Notes: generated by a model from the sequence alone, not told the origin. Shown: positions 2,392 to 49,301, counted from the first letter of the stretch. The stretch: DNA of 64,000 nt from an uncultured Gammaproteobacteria bacterium (GCA_963759005.1 CAVWXQ010000017.1:24833-88832), one strand, 5' to 3'. Translations and numbers: made by a program.

Positions 2392-4125
2392 ATGTCGAAC
2401 GTTGTTTCATTGTTCAGTGACACCCAAAAATATGAAGAAAGGCCTGTCGTTATCTTAGCGGATGATGACCCTTCCATTCGCCTGATGGTGCGTCATGTGC
2501 TGGAGTCAGAAGATTTCGATATTGTCGAGGCCTCTGATGGCCTGGAAGCAATAAAAGCGGTAGAAAAGTATCATCCTGCACTTATCCTGCTTGACGCCGT
2601 TATGCCGGGCATAGATGGCTTTACCACCTGTCAACAAATTAAGGACAATGGTCATACCGATATACCGGTGATGATGATTACCGGGCTGGATGACGATGCC
2701 TCCGTTGAAAGAGCTTATGAAGTCGGTGCTATTGATTTTATTACCAAACCTATCAAATGGGCGGTGCTTAAACATCGCGTAAAATCGGTAGTAGCGAAGG
2801 TCATTGCTGAGCGTAAAGTTCAATTGCTGGCTTATCGCGACACCTTAACCAATTTACCCAATCGCCTGTTATTTGCAGATCGTCTGGAACAGGCTGTCAT
2901 CCGTGCTGATCGCAGCCGCACATCAATGGCATTAATGCTGGTAGATATTGACGATTTTAAGCTAGTGAATGATTCATTTGGTCATGATGCTGGTGACAAA
3001 CTAATCAAAGCCGTTGGGGAATTGATCTCACGATCACTACGCCGTGCCGATACTATTGCACGTTTGGGTGGCGATGAATTTGCAGTAATTATCGAAGGTA
3101 TCGATAGTCCGGAAGATGCCATTTCAATAGCAGACAATCTAACCACCATTCTTGAACATAATGTTCGTCTTGATGATCAGGAAACCTATACCAGTGCGTC
3201 TATCGGTATTGCTGTTTATCCAGATGACGGTAAAGATGCACGAGCCATACTTAAAAATGCAGACACAGCGATGTTCCGGGCTAAAGAAAATGGCCGACAT
3301 TGCTTCCAGTTTTATAAACCGGACCTGAGTGTTAGTGCGATGGAACGTCTGGACCTGGAAAACAGCTTAAAAGCGGCCTTTGAAAAGGATGAGTTCCTGA
3401 TCCATTATCAGCCAGTTATAGATATTGATAAAAATGAAATTATTGGTGTAGAAGCTTTATTACGCTGGCAGCATCCCGATAAAGGTATGATTCAGCCTAC
3501 TGACTTCGTTCCCACCGTGGAAAATAGTGGGTTAATTATTGCCCTTGGTGAATGGATGATATTTAGTGTCTGTAAACAGATTCGTGTATGGCAGGATGCG
3601 AGTTTAAAAAACCAGAATGTTTCTATCAATCTGGCACCGCGGCAGTTTAAAGAACAGGATCTGGTTGCTCTGTTTACGCAGGCAATTGCAGAAAATAACA
3701 TTGAAGGTTCATCACTATCTGTTGAAGTTATGGAACGTACATTAATTGATAATGTGGGTGAAGTGGAAAGTACCCTGAAAAAACTTCGAAATATGGGCAT
3801 CAAAGTCATGCTTGATGATTTTGGTACTGGTTATGCATCACTGGCTTATCTTAAAAATTTTCCTATTGATGTGGTTAAAATTGACCGTGAATTTATTAGT
3901 GGAATACCTGACAATCCGGGTGACTCCGCAATTGTTGATGCTATTGCAGGTTTAACACGTGGTTTGAAATTAGACTTACTTGCTGAAGGTGTTGAAACAG
4001 AAAGTCAGTTAAGTGCCTTAAAAAGTATAGGTTGTCATTATGGGCAAGGTTATTACTGGAGTAAAGCGTTGCCTGGTGATGAGTATGAACAGTTTTATAT
4101 GAACCAGATTTATAATCTTGGTTAA
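2392..4125 (+). CDS. response-regulator receiver + GGDEF + EAL c-di-GMP turnover protein
   Basis: N-terminal REC (ILADDD...LLDAVMPGIDG), GGDEF signature RLGGDEFAV, EAL signatures EALLRW and DDFGTGYASL. Confidence 0.9.
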   Translation: MSNVVSLFSDTQKYEERPVVILADDDPSIRLMVRHVLESEDFDIVEASDGLEAIKAVEKYHPALILLDAVMPGIDGFTTCQQIKDNGHTDIPVMMITGLDDDASVERAYEVGAIDFITKPIKWAVLKHRVKSVVAKVIAERKVQLLAYRDTLTNLPNRLLFADRLEQAVIRADRSRTSMALMLVDIDDFKLVNDSFGHDAGDKLIKAVGELISRSLRRADTIARLGGDEFAVIIEGIDSPEDAISIADNLTTILEHNVRLDDQETYTSASIGIAVYPDDGKDARAILKNADTAMFRAKENGRHCFQFYKPDLSVSAMERLDLENSLKAAFEKDEFLIHYQPVIDIDKNEIIGVEALLRWQHPDKGMIQPTDFVPTVENSGLIIALGEWMIFSVCKQIRVWQDASLKNQNVSINLAPRQFKEQDLVALFTQAIAENNIEGSSLSVEVMERTLIDNVGEVESTLKKLRNMGIKVMLDDFGTGYASLAYLKNFPIDVVKIDREFISGIPDNPGDSAIVDAIAGLTRGLKLDLLAEGVETESQLSALKSIGCHYGQGYYWSKALPGDEYEQFYMNQIYNLG

Positions 4126-17754: not shown

Positions 17755-18708
17755 TTAAGCTTTCTTTTCCAATTCTGGCGTAGAATCTGTTTTGTGCATT
17801 TCTAGCTGCATTGCTTCTCTTCTTTCAGTTGCAGCTTTACGGTGTTCTTCCATCATTTTGATATTTAATGCCCGGCGCTCTTCCATTTGTTTGATAAATT
17901 CATCGCGTCGCTTCTGTACGTCTGCCGGAACATTGTTATTAAAAGCAGAAGCATTATCAGCGGAATACTGTTTTCTGCGTTCCAGGAAACGCTTATAGGA
18001 TTCCTGTTGTGCTTCTTGTGCCTGTTGACGACGTTCGTCCATTTGCATGCGGTAGCTTTGATCATCACTTATAGCCTGTGGCTGGCTGGCTTGTTGAGCA
18101 CTGACCGCGGCGTCTGCTTTCGCTACAGCTGAAGTTGCTTTCCTGTCAGCCTTCTGGTCTACAGGAGCAGCAGTATTATTGTTAGTGTTAGCAATCCCGC
18201 TGTCATCTTTGCTCTCACTATTCTCACTGATATTTAACGCCCGGCGCTCTTCCATCTTTTTGATATTTAATGCATGACGCTCTTCCATTTGTTTGATAAA
18301 TTCGTCGCGTCGCTTCTGTACGTCTGCCGGAACATTGTTATTAAAAGCAGAAGCATTATCAGCGGAATACTGTTTTCTGCGTTCCAGGAAACGCTTATAG
18401 GATTCCAGTTGTGCTTCTTGTGCCTGTTGACGACGTTCGTCCATTTGCTTACGGTAGCTTTGATCATCACTGATAGCCTGTGGTTGGCTGGCTTGTTGAG
18501 TGCTGACCGCGGTGTCTGCTTTCGCTACAGCTGAAGCTGCTTTACTTTCAGCATTCTGGGCTGCCGGAGAAGTGGTATTGCTGATAGTGTTAGCAGTCGC
18601 ATTATCATTACTCTCAGTTGTTATTGACTCAGCAGCCAGTACGGTATTCGTAAAAACGAATGAAAGAACTAATGCTGTTAATTGAATTTTTGATTTTGAA
18701 GCTTTCAT
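17755..18708 (-). CDS. secreted K/E/Q/R-rich coiled-coil protein with two 134-aa tandem repeats (island gene A)
   Basis: Start taken at MKASKSKIQLTALVLSFVFTNTVLA/AES (Sec signal peptide, AAGG SD). Repeat unit ...SAVAKAD.AVS.QQASQPQAISDDQSYR.QMDERRQQAQEAQ.ESYKRFLERRKQYSADNASAFNNNVPADVQKRRDEFIKQMEER... occurs twice. No recognisable family. Confidence 0.7.
   Translation of the reverse strand: MKASKSKIQLTALVLSFVFTNTVLAAESITTESNDNATANTISNTTSPAAQNAESKAASAVAKADTAVSTQQASQPQAISDDQSYRKQMDERRQQAQEAQLESYKRFLERRKQYSADNASAFNNNVPADVQKRRDEFIKQMEERHALNIKKMEERRALNISENSESKDDSGIANTNNNTAAPVDQKADRKATSAVAKADAAVSAQQASQPQAISDDQSYRMQMDERRQQAQEAQQESYKRFLERRKQYSADNASAFNNNVPADVQKRRDEFIKQMEERRALNIKMMEEHRKAATERREAMQLEMHKTDSTPELEKKA
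17861..18540. repeat. intragenic tandem duplication, period 402 nt
   Basis: Near-identical nucleotide blocks offset by 402 nt (for example 17863 vs 18265). The out-of-frame ORFs 17865-18068 and 18267-18470 have near-identical translations. Confidence 0.85.
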
Positions 18709-18942: not shown

Positions 18943-20163
18943 TTAGATGTTTTGTATTTGCTCAGTTTTTGAGTCCGGCTTTGGTGTAATACTGTTATTT
19001 CTGAGCGGTGGCTGTGAATTACGCATCATCTGGTGCATTTGTTTTTGCATGTCAGATATTTCTTTATGCATTTTCTTCATTTTCTGTATTGTTTCTATAC
19101 GATTTTTTTCAATTTGTTGATGTATTTCTTTTTGCGCTTTAGCAATTTCTGCTCTTCTTTCCCGATAAGCTTTTTTCGTAGCTTCATACTCCTCACGCTT
19201 GACCTGTATTTCTTGTTCATAGGCCTGGCGGCGCTGTTGCATCACTTCATTGTGTTTTTTTCTCTGCTCCAGTGAACGTGCCTTGGCTTCCTTGCGGGCC
19301 TGTTCATAAGCCTGCTTGTTAGCATATGGATGGCGTTGAGAGGGTGTAGAACGATTTTGCATGGGCATTTGATCGCTAGTTGGTTCTGTGGTCGAACTGT
19401 CTTCTGCTGATGTTGTTTCAATCGTTTCTACCTCTTCACGCTTGGCCTGTATTTCTTTTTCATAGGCCTGGCGGCGCTGTTGCATCAATTCATTGTGTTT
19501 TTTTCTCTGCTCCAGTGAACGTGCCTTGGCCTCCTTGCGGGCCTGTTCATAAGCCTGCTTGTTAGCATATGGATTGCGTTGAGAGGGTGTAGAACGATTC
19601 TGCATGGGCATTTGATCCCTAGTTGGTTCTGCGGTCGTACTATCTTCTTCTGATGCTGTTTCACTCGTTTCTACAGCAGTTATCGTTGTGGTGGTGTCGG
19701 GCAGGTGCTCATCTGCTGAAGTAACGGGTGTTATGTTTACTTCAGCTGCTTGTGTAGTAACTACTGCATCGTTTGCCTGTTCATCAGTTGTTGAGGATGT
19801 TTGTTGTTCTGAAGCGGGCTCTACAGAAGCTGGTGTTTCAGACACGGGTTCTTCAGAAACTAGCACATTAGAAGTCGGTTTTTTTGATAGTGTTTCTGCA
19901 GTGGCGGTTACAACAGTACTGGAGGTGTTCTCAAGCGAGTCAGTTATTGTGTCTGCTCGTACCCCCAGGTCCTTGTATTCGTCTTCATAGAAAGTCGCAG
20001 CGATAACGATAGCTGATACCAGCAGCAATACCAGTGGGATTACCACATTGCTCTTTGCTGATTCTGTCTGATTGTCTTGTTGCTTGTTTTTTTTCATATA
20101 GGGAGCAATCTCGGCTGCTTTTGTTTCTGATTTGTTTTCAATTTTATTATTAGTGTCACTCAT
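18943..20163 (-). CDS. membrane-anchored low-complexity + coiled-coil protein with 81-aa tandem repeat (island gene B)
   Basis: GGGAG SD. N-terminal TM VVIPLVLLLVSAIVIAATFY, then a T/S/E/V-rich spacer. Duplicated unit DQMPMQNRSTPSQR.PYANKQAYEQARKEAKARSLEQRKKHNE.MQQRRQAYE.EIQ.KREE. Met/His/Gln-rich tail. Confidence 0.7.
   Translation of the reverse strand: MSDTNNKIENKSETKAAEIAPYMKKNKQQDNQTESAKSNVVIPLVLLLVSAIVIAATFYEDEYKDLGVRADTITDSLENTSSTVVTATAETLSKKPTSNVLVSEEPVSETPASVEPASEQQTSSTTDEQANDAVVTTQAAEVNITPVTSADEHLPDTTTTITAVETSETASEEDSTTAEPTRDQMPMQNRSTPSQRNPYANKQAYEQARKEAKARSLEQRKKHNELMQQRRQAYEKEIQAKREEVETIETTSAEDSSTTEPTSDQMPMQNRSTPSQRHPYANKQAYEQARKEAKARSLEQRKKHNEVMQQRRQAYEQEIQVKREEYEATKKAYRERRAEIAKAQKEIHQQIEKNRIETIQKMKKMHKEISDMQKQMHQMMRNSQPPLRNNSITPKPDSKTEQIQNI
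19195..19645. repeat. intragenic tandem duplication, period ~243 nt
   Basis: Blocks 19195-19400 and 19437-19642 are near-identical. Confidence 0.85.
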
Positions 20164-20298: not shown

Positions 20299-20781
20299 CT
20301 ACTTGTTATGGAGTGATTGTTTAGTCGCAGGCGCTGGACGTGCAGGTGCCTGTCTACTATATGTATATGGCGCGTATCCGTAGTTAAGTGGCTGTCTGTT
20401 GTATGATTGATAGCCATATGGCGCGTAATAACGGCCGTAACGGTTGCCATAGCGATTATTGTTGTTATATCTGTAATTGTTGTTCCAGTAGTTATCGTTG
20501 TAACCATAACCTCGGGCATCACCTCTGCCTCTGCCTTTGCCTCGAACCTTGAACCTGATTTCTACGTCCATGTCGCCGGACATATCCCCAAATACGTCAT
20601 CCATAAAATCGCCCATAAAATTGTCATTCCAACGATTGTTCCAGCGGTTATTGTTCACATGATTGTTATTCCAGCGATTGCCATAACGATCATCGTCATT
20701 ATCAAAAGGGCCCCACCATGCTATTGCGCTGGTTGATGTTGCGAGCACCGTAGCGGCAGTGAATATTTGTAAGATTTTCAT
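20299..20781 (-). CDS. small exported Asn/Arg/Tyr/Trp/Gly-rich protein (island gene C, most divergent paralog)
   Basis: Signal peptide MKILQIFTAATVLATSTSAIA, acidic block, FKVRGKGRGRGDARG core, YAPYGY motifs and a Pro/Ala tail. Confidence 0.7.
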   Translation of the reverse strand: MKILQIFTAATVLATSTSAIAWWGPFDNDDDRYGNRWNNNHVNNNRWNNRWNDNFMGDFMDDVFGDMSGDMDVEIRFKVRGKGRGRGDARGYGYNDNYWNNNYRYNNNNRYGNRYGRYYAPYGYQSYNRQPLNYGYAPYTYSRQAPARPAPATKQSLHNK

Positions 20782-21047
20782 TTTAATTCCTGAAATTTGT
20801 TAGCAGTGGATTTCATAGCGCTTGTTCTGTTACTAGTCTATTGTTTTAAAAAGTATACGGAAGTATTACTATAATCAATACTTCAGATGAGGTATACAGG
20901 TATTTGAGTATACACTGCGGTTAAGAATTTAATCTATTATTGATTTATACAAAAATCCCGGGCAAATAGCTGCCTTACTATGACCTCCGGGGAATGCTGG
21001 AAATGCAAACAGATTGTCTGCAACCATCTTTGCTTTCCTGTAGGCAA

Positions 21048-21079
21048 GAAAAAAAGCCGTGTCAGGAGACACGGCTTTT
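21048..21079 (-). terminator. terminator of island gene D
   Basis: GCCGTGTC-AGGA-GACACGGC with the U-run on the minus strand (A8 on plus). Confidence 0.75.
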
Positions 21080-21101
21080 ATAAGTTTTTAGTAAAACTTA
21101 T

Positions 21102-21512
21102 TTAGCTGGTGCAGCTGGTGCTGCAGGAGCAGCGTGCAGGTGCTGGTGCTGCATAAGGACCAGGTCCATAATAACCAGGACCAGGACCATAGTACGGACG
21201 ATTGTAATAACCGCTATTATAACGATTATCCCAACGATTATCCCAGTTGTTATAACCACTACCGTAGTATTCGTTACGAGCATCACCGCGACCACGACCA
21301 CGTGCATTACCACTCATACCGAAATTAAAACTACCGTCGACATCACCATAACCGTCACCATAACCGTCACCATATCCGGATCCGTAGGCGTCATTGCGCC
21401 AGTCATTACGCCAGTCGTTGTTCCAGTTAGAGTTATTGTTACCCCAGTCAGCAGAAACTGCAGTTGATGCAGCTAAGATAGTTGCAGCAGCAATTGTTAG
21501 TAAAGTTTTCAT
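21102..21512 (-). CDS. small exported Asn/Gly/Tyr/Trp-rich protein (island gene D)
   Basis: GAGGG SD + MKTLLTIAAATILAASTAVSA/DW signal peptide, GYGDGYGDGYGDVDG acidic block and FNFGMSGNARGRGRGDA core. The C-terminus deviates from the family (see finding). Confidence 0.7.
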   Translation of the reverse strand: MKTLLTIAAATILAASTAVSADWGNNNSNWNNDWRNDWRNDAYGSGYGDGYGDGYGDVDGSFNFGMSGNARGRGRGDARNEYYGSGYNNWDNRWDNRYNSGYYNRPYYGPGPGYYGPGPYAAPAPARCSCSTSCTS

Positions 21513-21607
21513 TTTATTAACCCTCATTTAATTTACTTTGTTTAAAAAACCATGCGCTTGATTCATTAGAATCATCTACATCTGGCTCATCAGAACCATT
21601 GAGTATT

Positions 21608-21636
21608 ATTATATTAGTATTAAATAATATAGTCAA
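21608..21636 (-). promoter_or_regulatory. consensus sigma70 promoter of island gene D
   Basis: Minus strand reads TTGACT-17 nt (ATATTATTTAATACTAA)-TATAAT. Confidence 0.65.
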
Positions 21637-21815
21637 ATACTAAAACCTCTTTGTTCAAGCTGTTTCGAAGTTTACGTGTAATATTTATAACTATATATTT
21701 GAAGTAACTTATGAGTTATATTTAATGTTACTTATTACCAAAATGTATCGCTTAATAGGTACTGATAAACCCTAAATCTATCCTTTTTTATTGTCATAAA
21801 GTGTGTCAAATGACG

Positions 21816-21854
21816 AAAAAAAAGAAGTCGGTACGAAACGTACCGACTTCTTTT
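21816..21854 (-). terminator. terminator of island gene E
   Basis: 12-bp stem GAAGTCGGTACG/CGTACCGACTTC, AAA loop, A8 on plus (U-run on minus). Confidence 0.75.
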
Positions 21855-21951
21855 AGCAGTTAAGTTTATCTCTTTATGTTAGAGCTTTATGACTCAAATA
21901 AAGCCGATAGAAACATACAGATTGTTAATAATTGATGAGATAGCATTTTAA

Positions 21952-22767
21952 TTAAATACGGTTGAGAACTTTCTCGCGATTTGACTGGCTTCGTTGCATG
22001 CTTGCAGCACGTATATCAATCCGTTCTTTGTTACGCAATATTAGTGCTTCGATCAGTTGTTCTTGCTTAGCAATTCGCTGACGTAAACGTTCAACATGTT
22101 TATCCTGGGAGATTTTATACTGGTGAAGCTGTTTAGATTCGAGTGATTTAACTCGAGCAAACATTTCAGTCATGTGTCGTTTTTGCTCAAGTTTATAAGA
22201 TTCGATGCGAGCCTGTCTTTCCTGATCACGTTTTGTCATTGCACGTTGAGCCTGATATATTTCTGCAGAATTTTTGCTTTTTGCTGGTTCGATTACAGCT
22301 ACATCAGTAGAACTAGTTTGCTCAGTGCTGACGATTGCTTCAGACACAGTTTCTTTGTTTGTGTTTTCAGTTGCTACCAGTACTTCTGCTGTTTGAACTT
22401 CAGTAGCCTGAACTTCAGTAGCCTGAACTTCTACCAGTGCTACTTCGGCTTCAGCTACTTCTGTTGTTTCTTGTGCTTCACTAATGGCAACGCTGGAGAC
22501 AGTTGCTTCACTTATCTCAGTTGAAGCCGTGTTGCTTGCAAGAGTAGCATTATTTTCAGCGACTTCACTTTCTATTGCTGCAAGCCGCTCATCGACGGTG
22601 CCAAGTTGTTTATTCAGCATGATGGCAGTTGTTACGATAATACTTACCATTATTACAGCAACAACTGCATATTTACCTAAAGGGCCAAATACTGTTTTGT
22701 TGTCGTTAGTTTTGTTTTCAGTGGTTACTGAAGTCCCATCTATTTTTTTAGTTTTTTTGGTACTCAT
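21952..22767 (-). CDS. membrane-anchored low-complexity + coiled-coil protein (island gene E)
   Basis: Start taken at MSTKKTKK. TM YAVVAVIMVSIIVTTAIML, EVQATEVQATEVQ 15-nt repeats, and a K/E/Q/R C-terminal helix region. Confidence 0.65.
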   Translation of the reverse strand: MSTKKTKKIDGTSVTTENKTNDNKTVFGPLGKYAVVAVIMVSIIVTTAIMLNKQLGTVDERLAAIESEVAENNATLASNTASTEISEATVSSVAISEAQETTEVAEAEVALVEVQATEVQATEVQTAEVLVATENTNKETVSEAIVSTEQTSSTDVAVIEPAKSKNSAEIYQAQRAMTKRDQERQARIESYKLEQKRHMTEMFARVKSLESKQLHQYKISQDKHVERLRQRIAKQEQLIEALILRNKERIDIRAASMQRSQSNREKVLNRI

Positions 22768-22810
22768 GATTTTTACCTGTGATAGCATCCTATACGTTGT
22801 ATTTTTTGTT

Positions 22811-22845
22811 AAAAAGCCCTACAACCGATGTCAAGAAGTAGGGCT
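22811..22845 (-). terminator. terminator of island gene F
   Basis: Stem AGCCCTAC/GTAGGGCT with an A-run on plus. Confidence 0.65.
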
Positions 22846-22865
22846 TCAAAGTTATCTGGCTAAAC

Positions 22866-23246
22866 TTATTTAGCTACAGTAGCTGGAGCTTCCTGTGGAG
22901 CAGGTGCAGTTTGAGGAGCTGGGGCATAACCGTAAGGAGCATAACCGTTGTAGTAACCGTTAGAACCGTTGTAGTTGTTGCTACCATTGTAGTAACCGTT
23001 GCCATTGCCGTTACCACGTCCGCGACCGCTACCTTTAGCTTTCATACCGAAAGAGAAAGAGCTGTCAAATTCGCCGTCACCGTCGAAGTCGCCAGAACCG
23101 TTACCGTTACCATTGCTATTGTGGTTGTTGTAACCGTTATAGTTAGAGTTGTTGTCGTCACCGAAGAAAGGCATATCCCAATCAGCAGAAACAGCAGTAG
23201 ACGCAGCCAAGATAGTTGCAGCAGCAATTGTTAATAATGTTTTCAT
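22866..23246 (-). CDS. small exported Asn/Gly/Tyr-rich protein (island gene F)
   Basis: GAGGG SD, signal peptide MKTLLTIAAATILAASTAVSA/DWDMPFFGD, GDFDGDGEFDSSFSFGMKAKGSGRGRG core and YAPYGYAPAPQTAPAPQEAPATVAK tail. Confidence 0.75.
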   Translation of the reverse strand: MKTLLTIAAATILAASTAVSADWDMPFFGDDNNSNYNGYNNHNSNGNGNGSGDFDGDGEFDSSFSFGMKAKGSGRGRGNGNGNGYYNGSNNYNGSNGYYNGYAPYGYAPAPQTAPAPQEAPATVAK

Positions 23247-23323
23247 TTTAAAACCCTCAAAGTTTGTTATACAGCTATATTTAAAAATAATTTCATGCGC
23301 TTAGTCTATATGACCAACTAGAA

Positions 23324-23352
23324 AGAATATTATAAAACTCTAATATAAGCAA
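23324..23352 (-). promoter_or_regulatory. sigma70-type promoter of gene F
   Basis: Minus strand TTGCTT-17 nt (ATATTAGAGTTTTATAA)-TATTCT, positionally homologous to the promoters of A, D, G, H and I. Confidence 0.5.
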
Positions 23353-23566
23353 TATCTAAATATAGATGGAGCCGACTAAGAGACGGTTTTTAAATGGGTT
23401 TTATTTTTTATCTATCTCCCCAGTTTGTTTATATCTGCAAGCTGGTCGCTAGGATCGAAAGGGCAGGGGTGGAGAAATAAACTGATTATCAAATCTACCC
23501 AGAGTTAAATGAGATTGAGTATCTGTTGGTATTTGATCAGGTCAGATTTTTATATTGGCTATAAAT

Positions 23567-23604
23567 AAAAAAGCCCGACATCTGAAATCCAGAAGCCGGG
23601 CTTT
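23567..23604 (-). terminator. terminator of island gene G
   Basis: AGCCCGAC...GCCGGGCT hairpin with A6 on plus (U-run on minus). Repeated at 24388 and 25211. Confidence 0.7.
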
Positions 23605-23622
23605 AACGTTATGTGGCTAAAC

Positions 23623-24021
23623 TTATTCAGCTACTGTAGCTGGAGCTGCCTGTGGAGCAGGTGCAGCCTGAGGAGCTGGAGCATAACCGTAAGGCGCATA
23701 ACCGTTGTAGTAACCGTTAGAACCGTTGTAGTTATTATAACCATTGTAGTTACCATCGTAGTTACCGTTACCACGACCTTGACCACGACCACGACCTTTA
23801 GCTTTCATACCAAAAGAGAAAGAAGTGTCAAATTCGCCGTCACCGTCGAATTCACCATCGCCAGAACCATTACCGTTACCGTTGTTGTTCCAGTTAGAGT
23901 TGTTGTAGTTAGAGTTGTAGCCATTATCGTTGTCACCGAAGAAAGGCATATCCCAATCAGCAGAAACAGCAGTAGATGTTGCCAGGATAGTTGCAGCAGT
24001 AATTGTTAGTATTGTTTTCAT
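23623..24021 (-). CDS. small exported Asn/Gly/Tyr-rich protein (island gene G)
   Basis: Signal peptide + DWDMPFFGDNDNGYNSNYNNSNWNNNGNGNGSGDGEFDGDGEFDTSFSFGMKAKGRGRGQGRG...YAPYGYAPAPQAAPAPQAAPATVAE. Confidence 0.75.
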   Translation of the reverse strand: MKTILTITAATILATSTAVSADWDMPFFGDNDNGYNSNYNNSNWNNNGNGNGSGDGEFDGDGEFDTSFSFGMKAKGRGRGQGRGNGNYDGNYNGYNNYNGSNGYYNGYAPYGYAPAPQAAPAPQAAPATVAE

Positions 24022-24100
24022 TAGTAAGCCCTCATGTTTGTTTTACAGCAATATTAGAAATACATTCCCATGCGCTTGGTTTTCACAACCAGAGAAAAAA

Positions 24101-24129
24101 AGTATATTATAAAATACTAATATATGCAA
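24101..24129 (-). promoter_or_regulatory. sigma70-type promoter of gene G
   Basis: Minus strand TTGCAT-17 nt (ATATTAGTATTTTATAA)-TATACT. Confidence 0.55.
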
Positions 24130-24387
24130 TATCTAATTTATTGTTTGGAGACGTCTAAGCGTATTGTGTTTTAAGTGGTTTTAATTATGTATGATTTTTT
24201 AAAAATAGAAAGGCCGGTACAATGGGGTGCCGGCCTGTTTACTCAGTTTGATTATTTCTCATCCTGGCCGCTATGATCGAAAAGCCTGATTGTAGAAATT
24301 AACTGATTCTTATATCAGTCCAGATTTAACAACGATCGTGTATCTGTTGGTATTTGATCAGGTCAGATTTTTATATCGGCTATAACT

Positions 24388-24425
24388 AAAAAAGCCCGAC
24401 ATCTGAAATCCAGAAGCCGGGCTTT
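24388..24425 (-). terminator. terminator of island gene H
   Basis: Same hairpin as 23567-23604. Confidence 0.7.
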
Positions 24426-24443
24426 AACGTTATGTGGCTAAAC

Positions 24444-24842
24444 TTATTCAGCTACTGTAGCTGGCGCTGCCTGTGGAGCAGGTGCAGCCTGAGGAGCTGG
24501 AGCATAACCGTAAGGCGCATAACCGTTGTAGTAACCGTTAGAACCATTGTAGTTGTTACTACCATAGTAGTTACCATCGTAGTTACCGTTACCACGACCT
24601 TGACCACGGCCACGACCTTTTGCTTTCATACCGAAAGAGAAAGAAGTGTCAAATTCGCCGTCACCGTCGAATTCACCATCGCCAGAACCATTACCGTTAC
24701 CGTTGTTGTTCCAGTTAGAGTTGTTGTAGTTAGAGTTGTAGCCATTATCGTTGTCACCGAAGAAAGGCATATCCCAATCAGCAGAAACAGCAGTAGATGT
24801 TGCCAGGATAGTTGCAGCAGCAATTGTTAATAATGTTTTCAT
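24444..24842 (-). CDS. small exported Asn/Gly/Tyr-rich protein (island gene H)
   Basis: 132 aa; differs from gene G product at 4 positions by my alignment. Confidence 0.75.
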   Translation of the reverse strand: MKTLLTIAAATILATSTAVSADWDMPFFGDNDNGYNSNYNNSNWNNNGNGNGSGDGEFDGDGEFDTSFSFGMKAKGRGRGQGRGNGNYDGNYYGSNNYNGSNGYYNGYAPYGYAPAPQAAPAPQAAPATVAE

Positions 24843-24920
24843 TTTAAAACCCTCAAAGTTTGTTATACAGCAATATTTAAAAAAATTTTCATGCGCTTGG
24901 TCCGTATGACCAGTGAGGGA

Positions 24921-24949
24921 AGTATATTAGAAATATCTAATATTAGCAA
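24921..24949 (-). promoter_or_regulatory. sigma70-type promoter of gene H
   Basis: Minus strand TTGCTA-17 nt (ATATTAGATATTTCTAA)-TATACT. Confidence 0.55.
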
Positions 24950-25210
24950 GTTATAATTTACTTGTTTTGGATATGACCATCTAAGCGATTGTTTTGAAGA
25001 GGATTATATTTTGTATTTTTATTTTAAAAGTAGAAAGGCCGACACAATGGGGTGCCGGCCTTTTTACTCAGTTTGATTATTTCTCATCCTGGCCGCTATG
25101 ATCGAAAAGCCTGGTTGTAGAAATTAACTGATTCTTATATCAGTCCAGATTTAACTACGATGTGTATCTGTTCGATTTGATCAGGTCAGATTTTTATATT
25201 GGCTATAACT

Positions 25211-25248
25211 AAAAAAGCCCGACATCTGAAATCCAGAAGCCGGGCTTT
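25211..25248 (-). terminator. terminator of decayed copy I
   Basis: Same hairpin as 23567 and 24388. Confidence 0.7.
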
Positions 25249-25266
25249 AACGTTATGTGGCTAAAC

Positions 25267-25666
25267 TTATTCAGCTACTGTAGCTGGAGCTGCCTGTGGA
25301 GCAGGTGCAGCCTGAGGAGCTGGAGCATAACCGTAAGGCGCATAACCGTTGTAGTAACCGTTAGAACCGTTGTAGTTGTTGATAACCATTGTAGTTACCA
25401 TTGCCAGTTACCGTTACCACGACCTTGACCACGACCACGACCTTTAGCTTTCATACCGAAAGAGAAAGAAGTGTCAAATTCGCCGTCACCGTCGAATTCC
25501 CGTCGCCAGAACCGTTACCGTTACCGTTGTTGTTCCAGTTAGAGTTGTTGTAGTTAGAGTTGTAGCCATTATCGTTGTCACCGAAGAAAGGCATATCCCA
25601 ATCAGCAGAAACAGCAGTAGATGTTGCCAGGATAGTTGCAGCAGCAATTGTTAATAATGTTTTCAT
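25267..25666 (-). pseudogene. decayed third tandem copy of the Asn/Gly/Tyr-rich protein gene (island gene I)
   Basis: Start MKTLLTIAAATILATS at 25666 with an intact SD and promoter. Relative to G/H there is a 1-nt loss near 25499 (GAATTCACCATCGCC becomes GAATTCCCGTCGCC) and a 1-nt gain near 25410. The shifted frame hits a stop at 25451. Confidence 0.75.
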
Positions 25667-25844
25667 TTTAAAACCCTCAAAGTTTGTTATACAGCAATAT
25701 TTAAAAAAATTTTCATGCGCTTGGTCCGTATGACCAGTGAGAGGAAGTATATTAGAAATATCTAATATTAGCAAGTACTAATTGATTTTTATCATTAGAT
25801 AATTTATAACATATTGTTTTTAGTGATTTTAAATATGCTATTGC

Positions 25845-27388: not shown

Positions 27389-29545
27389 TTAAGTTGTTAG
27401 TCTTCTATAAATATCCGATACTTTAAGCGGCAATTGTGCCACATCACTAATAACAGAATAATTCGCCGCGCCATACATATGTGGCAGATAATCACGTGCT
27501 TCTTCATCGATGGTTATACAGTAGGGGTGAATACCATCGCGATGCGCTTCATATAATGCCTGTCGCGTATCTTCTACACCGTATTCGCCTCTATAGGTGT
27601 CATAATCATCCGGTTTACCATCGGAGATGGTAATGAGTAATTTTGTTGATGCTTCGACTTCGTTAAAGAGTCGTGTCATGTGGCGAATGAAAACGCCCAT
27701 GCGAGTATAATCTTTAGGCTGTATGTTAGAAATGCGTCCTTTAATTTCATCGTTGTACTCTTCATCAAATGCTTTTATCTTGTATAACTCGCAGCGTGTG
27801 CGGGTTACACCCGAAAAGCCGTATATAGCGAATCGGTCTCCCAGTATCTGTATGACTTCAGAAAGTAAAATTAATGATTCACGTTCTGCGTCATTGATCC
27901 AGCCTTTGGTTGAGCCGCTCATGTCGACCATAAACATAACGGCCACGTTTCTTTCTTCCTTGTGCATTTTGGTGAACAGTCGGTCAGTCATTTCCAACCC
28001 GCTTTTTACATCGCCGTATGCTTCGACTAAAGCATCGATATCGATATCGTCACCGTATACCTGTTTTTTAAGTAACTTGTCTTCACCGCGCAGAATCTCG
28101 AATGTGTGTCGCAGGCTTTTTAATAAACCTTTATGCTTGTCTAATGTGTTTGCAACGAAGTCATCATATTTGGATTCTATTTCGAGTTCACGCAGTACAC
28201 ACCAGTTTTTATGGTAATGCTGTCGTTTGAAATTCCATTCGTTATATAACTCAGCGCCTTCTTCATGATAAGTGCCTTGCCAGACATCATTCGGATTGAG
28301 CAGCGCTTCTTCATATTTTTTTAAATCGTATTCACCCGGCCCTGCTGCATGAAGATGTTCTGGTGGGATTTCACCAAAATCGACTATAATGGAAGTTATC
28401 AATTCTTTAACATGATCAGGTAATGGCATAAGTTCGCCTTCGAGTTCTAATTCGATTACGCCCGAATTGGACTGTTGATCGTTTTCGTTGCTATCTTTAT
28501 TTCTAACGGTAAAGGTTGTGCCAGTATCAGCTTCAGGCTGATCATCCGAAGAATCAGCGTTTTTCTTCATCGATTCTTTAGCCAGTTCACTTAATGCAAT
28601 TCGAAAATAGGCTTTTTCTTTTTCAATGCGTTTTTGCATGACATAGCTAACCTGGTCAAGTTTTAATGTGCCCTGGTAGCAAAGAGGCTCTGGAAATTGT
28701 TTTTCCTCAAGCAATTGTATGCAATATAGCGTGTCATCGACGCAAGCGTTATGAGCAGAAAGTTTTTCTATTATTTTGTTCCAGTTATCTGGAGGTGATT
28801 GTTCATTGTGGTTGCTGGTTTTCTGTTTCAATATTTGCATGTCACGATACAAACCAGGTAGTTCACGTTTGATACATGCTTCAAGACGAATAGTTTCCAG
28901 TGCCGATATTTTTTTTAACTGGGCCTCTGGGTCTGCGCAATCAAGTACTTTATCGAATGGAAGACGAAAAGTACCAAATTGAATCTGTGCCCAGAGGTGA
29001 GCAACTGTAGCCTTATAGATTAAAAAATTATCTTTAGATTCTTCCAGTAAAGCAGTAATGGAAGGAAGAAATATTGTTTCGGTATCTGTGTAAGCGTGGC
29101 TGTCTTCAGACTCTGTAATTTTTAATTTTCTGCCGGAAAGCCCATGAACAAATGGTAATAATACAGATATTTCTTCATTTAGTACCGCTCCACAGGCTTT
29201 GACGTGGGCAGTGTGAACGTAATTATCCAGATCGCGAATTACTGTCATCGCAGGGGTTAAGCCTTTGCGGTCGTAATTGTCTGTTGCCGTCATGGCCCAT
29301 GCTTCGACCATGTGTTGATCCATGGCTTGCAGAGCCCTAATGGAATTCAGGGTGAACTGAAAGGCCAGTTCCTCGTTGGTTGCGGAAATGCGTCTACATA
29401 AATTTAAAATAAAATCCTGAATGCTTCGGGGTTGTTTAACAATGAGTTCTGCAGCGTCTTCACTTTTGATAAATGTAAATTCGGCGTCGTAGTAAACATC
29501 AAGTGATTTGATGATCTCTTCAAAGGTAAGTGCGGGACGAGGCAT
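27389..29545 (-). CDS. CbbO/NorD-type von Willebrand factor A protein
   Basis: C-terminal VWA domain with MIDAS DMSGS. Lies directly downstream of the CbbQ/NorQ ATPase. Start taken at MPRPALTFEE (29545) rather than the overlapping upstream ATG. Confidence 0.85.
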   Translation of the reverse strand: MPRPALTFEEIIKSLDVYYDAEFTFIKSEDAAELIVKQPRSIQDFILNLCRRISATNEELAFQFTLNSIRALQAMDQHMVEAWAMTATDNYDRKGLTPAMTVIRDLDNYVHTAHVKACGAVLNEEISVLLPFVHGLSGRKLKITESEDSHAYTDTETIFLPSITALLEESKDNFLIYKATVAHLWAQIQFGTFRLPFDKVLDCADPEAQLKKISALETIRLEACIKRELPGLYRDMQILKQKTSNHNEQSPPDNWNKIIEKLSAHNACVDDTLYCIQLLEEKQFPEPLCYQGTLKLDQVSYVMQKRIEKEKAYFRIALSELAKESMKKNADSSDDQPEADTGTTFTVRNKDSNENDQQSNSGVIELELEGELMPLPDHVKELITSIIVDFGEIPPEHLHAAGPGEYDLKKYEEALLNPNDVWQGTYHEEGAELYNEWNFKRQHYHKNWCVLRELEIESKYDDFVANTLDKHKGLLKSLRHTFEILRGEDKLLKKQVYGDDIDIDALVEAYGDVKSGLEMTDRLFTKMHKEERNVAVMFMVDMSGSTKGWINDAERESLILLSEVIQILGDRFAIYGFSGVTRTRCELYKIKAFDEEYNDEIKGRISNIQPKDYTRMGVFIRHMTRLFNEVEASTKLLITISDGKPDDYDTYRGEYGVEDTRQALYEAHRDGIHPYCITIDEEARDYLPHMYGAANYSVISDVAQLPLKVSDIYRRLTT

Positions 29546-29567
29546 GTTTCGATTATTTTGCTTTGTT

Positions 29568-30380
29568 TTAAAACAATGAAGATGATAGTTCGTGCATGGC
29601 AACCATCATATCAGCATCATCAGTGATGGCCTGAGAGATTGCAGTTTTGCAAGCGAGAACCGGTGAAATACCTTCGTGAATAAGTTTTGCGGCATGTACT
29701 AACAAACGGGTAGAAGCGCCTTCATCAAGTCCGCTGCCTTTAAGGTCGCGTGTCATGTGCGCGAATTTGACCAGCAGGTTAGCGGTGGCTGCATCGATGT
29801 CAGTCTCTTTGATGATAATCTCAGCTTCTAGAGCGGCATCAGGATAATCAAATTCAAGCGCAACAAAGCGTTGACGAGTACTTTGCTTTAAGTCCTTCAT
29901 GACACTTTGATAACCCGGGTTATATGAGATAGCTAAACAAAACTCAGGCGTGGCTTCAATTATTTCGCCGATCTTTTCCATGGGTAATACGCGGCGATCA
30001 TCTGCCAGCGGGTGGATTACCACGGTGGTGTCTTTGCGTGCCTCGACAATTTCATCAAGGTAACAGATCGCGCCATTGCGAACCGAACGTGCTAAAGGGC
30101 CATCAACCCAGACGGTTTCACCACCTGAAATTAAGAATCGTCCAACCAGATCGGATGCTGTTAAATCATCGTGGCAGGAAACCGTAATCAATGGTCTTTT
30201 GAGGCGCCATGCCATGTGTTCCATAAATCGTGTTTTACCACAACCGGTAGGGCCTTTAAGTAGTACCGGTAATGCCTGTCTATAGGCAGCTTCGAAAATG
30301 GCAATTTCATCACCAACTGACTGGTAATAAGGTTCATTTATTATGAAATATTCTTCAGGTTTTAGGGCTTTGCTTTGCAT
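29568..30380 (-). CDS. CbbQ/NirQ/NorQ family MoxR-type AAA+ ATPase
   Basis: Walker A GPTGCGKT; ~270-aa CbbQ-like length and sequence (YYQSVGDE..., HPLADDRRVLP). Confidence 0.9.
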   Translation of the reverse strand: MQSKALKPEEYFIINEPYYQSVGDEIAIFEAAYRQALPVLLKGPTGCGKTRFMEHMAWRLKRPLITVSCHDDLTASDLVGRFLISGGETVWVDGPLARSVRNGAICYLDEIVEARKDTTVVIHPLADDRRVLPMEKIGEIIEATPEFCLAISYNPGYQSVMKDLKQSTRQRFVALEFDYPDAALEAEIIIKETDIDAATANLLVKFAHMTRDLKGSGLDEGASTRLLVHAAKLIHEGISPVLACKTAISQAITDDADMMVAMHELSSSLF

Positions 30381-41151: not shown

Positions 41152-41228
41152 CGGGGTATAGCGCAGTCTGGTAGCGCGCCTGCTTTGGGAGCAGGATGTC
41201 GGGAGTTCGAATCTCTCTACCCCGACCA
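41152..41228 (+). tRNA. tRNA-Pro (anticodon UGG)
   Basis: Cloverleaf foldable by eye: acceptor CGGGGTA/TACCCCG, anticodon loop TTTGGGA, encoded CCA. Confidence 0.9.
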
Positions 41229-41392
41229 AATAATAGAACTGGTTACGATGGATATGTGGCTAGAAGATGGTGTGGCAGTTTAACGCTGATCAGGGAAAGA
41301 GATTTGAACGTGCGTAGCGCGGACCCAGGGGCGAAGGGCGGGAGCCTGGAATAACCCTGCCAGCAAGAAGAGACGCCAGATATAGAAATTCT

Positions 41393-41469
41393 GCGCCTGT
41401 AGCTCACTCGGATAGAGCATCGGCCTTCTAAGCCGAGGGTAGCAGGTTCGAATCCTGCCAGGCGCACCA
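41393..41469 (+). tRNA. tRNA-Arg (anticodon UCU)
   Basis: Acceptor GCGCCTG/CAGGCGC, anticodon loop CTTCTAA, T-arm GGTTCGAATCC, CCA. Confidence 0.9.
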
Positions 41470-41493
41470 GGTAGTGTATATTTAAGAATTATG

Positions 41494-41569
41494 GTGGACG
41501 TAGCTCAGTTGGTAGAGTCCCGGATTGTGATTCCGGTCGTCGTGGGTTCGAGCCCCATCGTCCACCCCA
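41494..41569 (+). tRNA. tRNA-His (anticodon GUG)
   Basis: Extra G-1 paired with C73, anticodon loop TTGTGAT, CCA. Confidence 0.9.
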
Positions 41570-41815
41570 TAACAAGTTCAAAAAGAGCAATGCTCTTGAT
41601 AGAGTGAAATAAGTGAGTGTTGTTGACTCAGTTGCAGAGCAGGGGGGCTCTTGATTTCTGTTCGGGTTTCTAGCCTGAGCGCCTCATCATAATGTTTTAT
41701 GCTAAAAGTCTGATTGTAATGAGTTTTGCAGGCAAAACCTGTACGGCCATGGTCGCATCGTGGCGCAAGGAGACAGGAAGTCGATGCGATTATTTGTTAA
41801 TATCAGCATCTTATT

Positions 41816-41899
<84 letters not shown>

Positions 41900-49143: not shown

Positions 49144-49219
49144 GGGTGCTTAGCTCAGCTGGTAGAGCGTCGCCCTTACAAGGCGAATGTCGGGGGTTCG
49201 ACTCCCTCAGCACCCACCA
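49144..49219 (+). tRNA. tRNA-Val (anticodon UAC)
   Basis: Acceptor GGGTGCT/AGCACCC, anticodon loop CTTACAA, CCA. Confidence 0.9.
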
Positions 49220-49224
49220 AGTAC

Positions 49225-49301
49225 GGACCGGTAGTTCAGCTGGTTAGAATGCCGGCCTGTCACGCCGGAGGTCGCGGGTTCAAATCCCGTCCGGTCCGCC
49301 A
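49225..49301 (+). tRNA. tRNA-Asp (anticodon GUC)
   Basis: Acceptor GGACCGG/CCGGTCC, anticodon loop CTGTCAC, CCA. Confidence 0.9.

Follow-up and report, generated by a model that had tools for sequence, protein, structure and literature searches.

Probable sulfur globule protein genes in tandem, with helical and membrane-anchored companion genes, in an uncultured gammaproteobacterium

What are the six small, repetitive proteins encoded close together in this stretch of gammaproteobacterial DNA, and what would they be exported to do? The stretch comprises 64,000 nt from an uncultured Gammaproteobacteria bacterium (GCA_963759005.1, CAVWXQ010000017.1:24833-88832) and is called the window throughout; positions are counted from its first letter. 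When all six reading frames of the window were searched with a hidden Markov model (HMM) of the family, exactly six minus-strand paralog loci emerged, all of them in 20299-25666. With strong, though not complete, confidence we take them to be genes for sulfur globule proteins (SGPs), a family that is already known, and this is the overall explanation that we adopt for the locus. The six genes are as follows, with bit scores referring to the Pfam family PF17228:

sgp1, 20299-20781, minus strand: open reading frame (ORF) of 160 amino acids (aa), mature protein 139 aa; divergent basic paralog, 28.4 bits
sgp2, 21102-21512, minus strand: 136 aa from the ATG after a GAGGG Shine-Dalgarno sequence; 29.2 bits
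sgp3, 22866-23246, minus strand: 126 aa; 34.2 bits
sgp4, 23623-24021, minus strand: 132 aa; 36.6 bits
sgp5, 24444-24842, minus strand: 132 aa; 33 bits
sgp6, about 25270-25666, minus strand: broken copy of sgp5, from DNA alignment and three-frame translation

The start of sgp2 was chosen as the ATG behind the conserved GAGGG, the listed ORF beginning five codons earlier, and the family HMM detects sgp6 as two fragments, at 25454-25777 and 25270-25407. A preliminary description of this DNA had proposed a six-member exported family with a single order of modules, and that order is indeed present in every copy. Specifically, a signal peptide and then DW or WW lead into a block rich in Asn, an acidic block of Gly and Asp and a core of the FSFGMKAKGRGRG type, and the core is followed by an N/G/Y block, by YAPYGYAP or YGPGPGYYGPGP, and by a Pro/Ala tail. 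Homologs of other genomes keep the same order. Among the paralogs sgp1 diverges most: its signal peptide is MKILQIFTAATVLATSTSAIA (ending ...TSAIA) and precedes WW, while that of sgp2-6 is MKTLLTIAAATILA(A/T)STAVSA and precedes DW. Its core reads EIRFKVRGKGRGRG, so that the core motif F.F(G/K)M of the preliminary description fits sgp1 only loosely. All of the signal peptides consist of M-K, a 15-residue core of hydrophobic and small residues, and V-S-A or A-I-A at -3 to -1 ahead of the DW or WW, a pattern that, judged by inspection, is kept in all copies and in the homologs. They are canonical Sec-type signal peptides for which cleavage is predicted, and the earlier expectation of export is upheld on that ground.

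An indication of what the proteins are comes from Pfam PF17228 (SGP, Sulphur globule protein), which has a curated gathering cut-off of 26.7 bits and a profile of 93 positions. All five intact paralogs exceed this cut-off, at 28.4-36.6 bits. The matches lie within profile positions 2-89 overall, with four of the five ending at 87-89 and that of sgp2 covering 2-80. Ten sequences whose mature part had been shuffled with its composition preserved gave no PF17228 match, even with the limit set at E <= 10. It is therefore residue order, and not composition alone, that produces the match, and a match by composition only was ruled out. Searched against 5.8 billion proteins, sgp4 has 24 homologs, for 23 of which PF17228 is on record. 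One of the 24, P0010, is a protein of the Solemya velum gill symbiont to which UniRef gives the name 'Sulfur globule protein CV1'. Across the homologs, including that of the thiotrophic symbiont, the motifs ADWDMPFFGD, FSFGMKAKGRGRG and YAPYGYAP are kept in order. The sequence features that go with SGP membership are thus found together: a profile match, a Sec-type signal peptide (by inspection), and a small mature protein with much Gly and many aromatic residues.

The envelope of periplasmic sulfur globules is built from SGPs, which are structural proteins exported by Sec (PMC10386293, PMC7356093). In Allochromatium vinosum SgpA and SgpB are mutually replaceable, SgpC takes part in globule expansion, and an sgpBC double mutant forms no globules (PMC10386293, PMC7356093). 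In Beggiatoa leptomitoformis, which has a single SGP gene, transposon insertion into that gene abolishes both sulfur storage and lithotrophic growth (PMC10386293, PMC7356093). Genomes carry one to six sgp genes, with six in Thiothrix caldifontis (PMC10386293). By homology with SgpA/B/C of A. vinosum, the proteins of the window would envelop periplasmic sulfur globules. The preliminary description had suggested a coat around inclusions and had hinted at a sulfur oxidiser, and homology now points in that direction, to a sulfur globule envelope. It had also held the architecture to be unusual and uncharacterised, and this view has to be given up, since the paralogs belong to the described PF17228 / SgpA-C family and multi-copy sgp families have been published (PMC10386293). 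A profile match to a characterised family, named in that description as grounds for abandoning its claim, is exactly what the scores above cut-off represent. The paralogs add members to a described and experimentally studied family, and in this respect the headline result is ordinary.

Several observations weigh against this assignment. The Pfam scores exceed the threshold by just 2-10 bits. The mature proteins are strongly hydrophilic, with a grand average of hydropathy of -1.3 to -1.7, in contrast to the A. vinosum SGPs, which have been described as extremely hydrophobic (PMC10386293). Frameshifts affect two of the six copies. The 64-kb window contains no sox, dsr, sqr or fcc genes, and the link to sulfur globules of the companion genes taken up below would run through synteny and domain fusion only. 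The near-threshold scores, the hydrophilicity that sets the proteins apart from the described A. vinosum SGPs (PMC10386293), and a window free of sulfur-oxidation enzymes could also be reconciled with generic low-complexity secreted structural proteins, belonging to the cell surface, a biofilm matrix or a carbonate or polyphosphate inclusion, whose Pfam match would come from their Gly/Tyr/Asn composition. We consider this unlikely, because the shuffled sequences never match PF17228 and the real matches cover nearly the whole profile, because ordered motifs are kept across homologs that include the protein of a thiotrophic symbiont, and because a related cluster adjoins dsrC and CbbQ/CbbO-type genes lie adjacent to the array.

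Assignment to the SGP family leaves room for features of the window proteins that are their own. The mature proteins have a mass of 11.0-16.8 kDa and contain 15-19% Asn, 11-20% Gly, 10-13% Tyr and 1-5% Trp. Mature sgp1 is basic, with a net charge of +6 and an isoelectric point (pI) of 9.5, and mature sgp3-5 are acidic, with net charges of -5 to -7 and a pI of about 4.2 (sgp3, net charge -5; sgp4, net charge -7 and pI 4.1). An AlphaFold2 model of sgp4 has no secondary structure and a mean predicted local distance difference test (pLDDT) score of 45, and on this model the SGPs are predicted to be disordered. Every paralog carries blocks of opposite charge, one acidic and one RG, on either side of the central FSFGM motif.

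The Solemya velum symbiont SGP (P0010) is 45% identical to sgp4 and has in common with it the ADWDMPFFGDD N-terminus, YAPYGYAP and the Pro/Ala tail; its core reads SFNFSM. In two Solemya-type proteins the RG block comes before the core and the acidic block after it, which is swapped relative to the window SGPs. The sgp copies of the Solemya symbiont are two and solitary, with no helical companion genes nearby. Blocks of opposite charge around FSFGM in every paralog, predicted disorder, and the retention of both blocks in swapped order in the Solemya symbiont homologs could all be expected if the acidic and RG blocks drove a charge-paired condensate, or coacervate, in the periplasm, with a role other than sulfur coating. 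We attach very little probability to such a role: homology to an envelope-forming SGP family is the simpler account, and paired charges could just as well help neighbouring molecules to pack side by side in a coat.

With SgpA, SgpB and SgpC of A. vinosum the window SGPs share small size, a Sec signal peptide, a repetitive Gly- and aromatic-rich sequence and organization in multi-gene families. They differ in being hydrophilic with 15-19% Asn, the A. vinosum proteins being extremely hydrophobic by description (PMC10386293), and, again by description, in their sharply defined acidic and RG blocks around FSFGM. The arrangement of the genes differs as well. The A. vinosum sgp loci are far apart (SgpA, Alvin_1905; SgpB, Alvin_0358; SgpC, Alvin_1325; PMC10386293), whereas the window has a tandem array with interleaved companion genes.

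Could the genes lie on the other strand? Plus-strand open frames of 107-132 codons run across each sgp gene (e.g., 23611-24009, 24432-24830 and 22911-23234), and the preliminary description had allowed that these might be the expressed products. Substitutions between copies argue otherwise. Between sgp4 and its ortholog in the related contig L005, the minus-frame substitutions at codon positions 1, 2 and 3 number 8, 5 and 23, and between sgp4 and the ortholog in L001 they number 20, 8 and 45. The ratio of synonymous to non-synonymous changed codons is 19:11 in the sense frame versus 4:26 in the antisense frame, and in a second comparison 31:24 versus 9:46, so that most differences between copies are silent when read in the minus frame and change the amino acid when read in the antisense frame. 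Shine-Dalgarno sequences, ATG codons, signal peptides, promoter-like sites and terminators all have the orientation that minus-strand genes require. A coding sequence rich in AAC, GGT and TAC codons has a stop-free complement, and the V/T-rich antisense products are what this complement encodes. The codon-position and synonymous/non-synonymous counts rule out the antisense ORFs as real genes, a possibility to which we give practically no weight. By these counts the minus strand is the coding strand and the plus-strand ORFs, on which no selection is apparent, are artefacts.

Not all of the copies are whole. The sgp3-sgp6 genes form tandem units at a spacing of 757-825 bp, each with its flanking regulatory DNA; identity is 97% between sgp4 and sgp5, and 99% between sgp5 and sgp6 over their 5' halves. 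Relative to sgp5, sgp6 has three single-base indels, and it is a pseudogene or else has been misassembled within a near-identical repeat. The reading frame of sgp2 shifts 13 codons before its end, so that the Pro/Ala tail gives way to an aberrant, Cys-containing one (...APAPARCSCSTSCTS) where orthologs (L002, L005) have ...AAPAPQAAPAK; the in-frame ancestral stop is at ~21098. The preliminary description had counted five intact paralogs. Five do match PF17228, but with the tail of sgp2 frameshifted and the indels in sgp6 only four copies are fully canonical. A frameshift is also seen well away from the array, where pepN (aminopeptidase N, plus strand) is split into two overlapping ORFs, 99-1127 and 1048-2103, by a shift outside any homopolymer run. 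Taken together, the frameshifts in sgp2, sgp6 and pepN suggest either assembly indel errors or ongoing gene decay.

How the genes would be expressed can be read from their flanks, where the promoter scan gives each sgp gene its own promoter-like site. The signals are listed below, all on the minus strand; the terminators of sgp3-sgp6 were found by pattern search and folding, and that of sgp2 by a terminator scan:

24890-24949, minus strand: promoter-like site of sgp5, TTGCTA-17-TATACT, with the leader hairpin UGGUC...GACCA and then a CAAGCGCAUG box
25714-25774, minus strand: promoter-like site and leader of sgp6
24069-24135, minus strand: promoter-like site and leader of sgp4
23294-23358, minus strand: promoter-like site and leader of sgp3
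21551-21636, minus strand: promoter-like site and leader of sgp2
21551-21574, 23294-23316, 24069-24091, 24890-24912 and 25714-25736, minus strand: leader element (hairpin and box)
24389-24424, minus strand: intrinsic terminator after sgp5
23568-23603, minus strand: terminator after sgp4, identical copy
25212-25247, minus strand: terminator after sgp6, identical copy
22811-22846, minus strand: terminator after sgp3, variant
21052-21079, minus strand: own terminator of sgp2

The leader consists of a 5-bp hairpin directly 5' of CAAGCGCAUG, 35-55 nt ahead of the ATG. It precedes sgp2-6 and most sgp genes of the related contigs examined (L001, L002, L005, L008). Over 12 aligned leaders the hairpin is 89% paired, compared with 8-57% for slid controls, and its score was reached by none of 500 shuffles. 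Two pairs show compensatory changes (GC in 7 leaders and AU in 5; CG in 6 and UA in 6). These changes divide the paralog types, GGUC/GACC versus GAUUC/GAAUC, and may trace to one or two evolutionary events only. The leader has no match in Rfam at the gathering threshold. As a conserved element, it may provide a handle on sgp regulation.

The terminator pattern of sgp3-sgp6 has four matches where none is expected, and folds at -25.9 kcal/mol (z = -6). The sgp genes appear to be transcribed as separate units. They also prefer particular codons when set against 29 other genes of the window: AAC 70% vs 33%, TAC 56% vs 25%, GGT 74% vs 49% and TTC 65% vs 22%. The bias suggests selection for very high expression of the sgp genes, and it is absent from the three companion genes described below. 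Individual promoter-like sites, leaders, terminators and codon bias all fit a structural product made in high copy number.

Three companion genes lie between and beside the sgp genes:

cc317, 17755-18708, minus strand: secreted protein with two helical-hairpin domains, from translation, AlphaFold2 and synteny
tm406, 18943-20163, minus strand: bitopic membrane protein, from ORF and synteny
tm278, 21952-22788, minus strand: bitopic membrane protein between sgp2 and sgp3, from ORF and synteny

In cc317 a signal peptide, MKASKSKIQLTALVLSFVFTNTVLA (ending ...NTVLA), precedes AE; beyond it lie a disordered linker of S, T and N and two copies of a highly charged domain of ~100 aa. AlphaFold2 models these as hairpins, with helices 78-122/128-167 and 212-257/262-308 and block pLDDT values mostly of 76-87, lower at the turns. 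The domain, here called the cc domain, has one invariant Pro, which sits in the hairpin turn; prolines are otherwise isolated in the cc317 sequence and in the family alignment. None of 34 close homologs of cc317 has a Pfam domain, and most have one copy of the cc domain. A cc-domain profile search of 1.84 billion representative proteins gave 51 matches (representative clusters) at E <= 0.001, and the examined contigs that carry the domain come from uncultured Gammaproteobacteria. The cc-domain family is narrow and unannotated. Foldseek found no match for cc317 in the PDB, searches of the companions against Pfam and NCBIfam gave sub-threshold noise only (e.g., GltJ at 19.7 bits against a cut-off of 450), and against PDB sequence profiles the best E values were >= 0.08.

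A phasin- or apolipoprotein-like amphipathic coat was considered for cc317 and rejected, as the mean 18-residue hydrophobic moment of its four helices lies at z = -1.5 to +0.4 relative to shuffles. The helices are not amphipathic, and phasin-like binding of cc317 to a hydrophobic surface is therefore unsupported.

Among described proteins the nearest in kind is SgpD of A. vinosum (Alvin_2515, UniProt D3RP35), which co-localises with sulfur globules as an mCherry fusion (PMC10386293). By description, SgpD and cc317 alike are exported by Sec, contain no enzymatic domains and have long helices, predicted with confidence, between which lie low-confidence regions. SgpD differs in having central, regularly spaced prolines (P-X2-P-X2-P...), which are absent from cc317 with its almost Pro-free cc domain. 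The BLAST homologs of SgpD are almost all in Chromatiaceae (PMC10386293). Reduced sulfur is reported to induce A. vinosum sgpD, and likewise the envelope protein gene of B. leptomitoformis. Comparing the two proteins by description, analogy is a more likely relation than orthology.

The two membrane proteins resemble each other in design. In tm406, behind a Lys-rich N-terminus of 39 aa and a transmembrane (TM) helix at 40-60, comes an S/T/E linker that is acidic (net charge -21); the helical C-terminal region is basic (+15) and holds an internal repeat. The same architecture recurs in tm278, with a Lys-rich N-terminus, a TM helix at about 40-59, an acidic linker (-17) and a basic helical C-terminus (+11); both linkers are acidic and rich in S/T/E/A/V. 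By the positive-inside rule the C-terminal part of each protein would be periplasmic, in the same place as sulfur globules. Neither tm406 nor tm278 matches the cc-domain HMM. In hhalign comparisons the probability against the cc domain is 74% for tm406 and 2% for tm278, and that of tm406 against tm278 is 50%. For tm278 this outcome is negative, and for tm406 homology to the cc domain is no more than a possibility. Internal tandem duplications of the helical domain, of about 134 aa in cc317 and about 81 aa in tm406, are absent from most orthologs, which points to recent duplication at this locus at the level of domains as well as genes.

The companions are tied to the SGPs by conservation of the cluster, the interleaved arrangement being syntenic in about seven contigs. 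The recurring order is sbcB, sgp, sgp, tm278, sgp2-like, sgp1-like, tm406, cc, yggS, aminotransferase, M18 peptidase, NAD kinase, ispG. It is complete in L001/L007, L005 and L008 and partial in L002, L003, L004, L009 and L010; these contigs come from uncultured Gammaproteobacteria or are Thiotrichales-like, L009 being labelled Thiotrichaceae. Orthologs at the matching position are found for sgp1 in L001, L002, L005 and L008, for tm406 in seven loci, and for tm278 in L001, L003, L005 and L008. Next to sbcB the relatives have two sgp copies, compared with four in the window (one of them defective), which indicates recent local tandem amplification in the window.

In some metagenome proteins the cc domain and an SGP form a single chain. 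The cc-domain HMM matches the C-terminal extension of metagenome SGPs, P0007 at 31.8 bits and P0015 at 27.4 bits, compared with a maximum of 3.9 over 100 shuffles, and P0103 and P0091 likewise join an SGP-like N-terminus to a cc domain. P0007 occupies the equivalent chromosomal slot beside yggS. A more distant cluster, at 4213-7615 of L013 (a TANS21 metagenome scaffold), adjoins dsrC (2707-3066) and rnf genes and encodes, in order, an SGP (125 aa), a TM protein (262 aa), an SGP (114 aa), a TM protein (215 aa) and an SGP-cc fusion (204 aa). The TM proteins of L013 have an SGP-like WGYAYAPVPYGYG or WAYAYAPAPYA motif directly ahead of the helical region; hhalign-type comparisons with them gave 14-48%. 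From synteny and fusion, a functional link of the cc family with SGPs is likely. For the TM proteins the suggested link is one of synteny and recurrent architecture only. Modest novelty attaches to the shared leader, to the conserved set of companion genes and to the fusions of SGPs with the hairpin domain.

The observations can be combined into a scheme for the locus. The SGPs would be exported by Sec and cleaved at VSA|DW or AIA|WW, and the mature proteins would, in this organism, form a thin layer around nascent sulfur. Contacts with sulfur may be made by the FSFGM core and by Tyr, Trp and Phe residues, and the Asn/Gly, acidic and RG blocks could provide lateral packing between neighbouring SGPs, electrostatic in the case of the charged blocks. 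The secreted hairpin protein cc317 would be an accessory component of the coat, and the basic periplasmic tails of tm406 and tm278 might bind the mainly acidic coat and so hold globules at the cytoplasmic membrane. The full picture, of a multi-component coat encoded in one cluster, with acidic and basic SGPs, hairpin proteins, two bitopic tethers or organisers and a leader that co-regulates the sgp genes, is put forward tentatively, and we lean slightly toward doubting it. Its interest lies partly in the fact that the composition of the envelope is far less known in chemotrophic sulfur bacteria than in purple sulfur bacteria (PMC7356093). For the chemotrophs the locus lists candidate additional envelope components, namely a hairpin family tied to SGPs and two membrane-anchored partners, and the latter could explain how periplasmic globules stay at the cytoplasmic membrane.

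Beside sbcB and the sgp array, on the minus strand, lie genes for a CbbQ/NorQ-type AAA+ protein (29568-30380) and a 737-aa CbbO/NorD-like protein (27389-29602). The latter has a weak, sub-threshold match to the vWA domain, and CbbQ/CbbO-type neighbours are present in L001 too. The two may be a RuBisCO activase pair, which would hint at autotrophy; the window contains no RuBisCO gene. Further away, an Rfam search of the window found no rRNA or other family besides tRNAs. These comprise a Pro-Arg-His-Leu cluster (41152-41899) upstream of tig-clpP-clpX-lon and a Val-Asp pair (49144-49301) downstream of lon.

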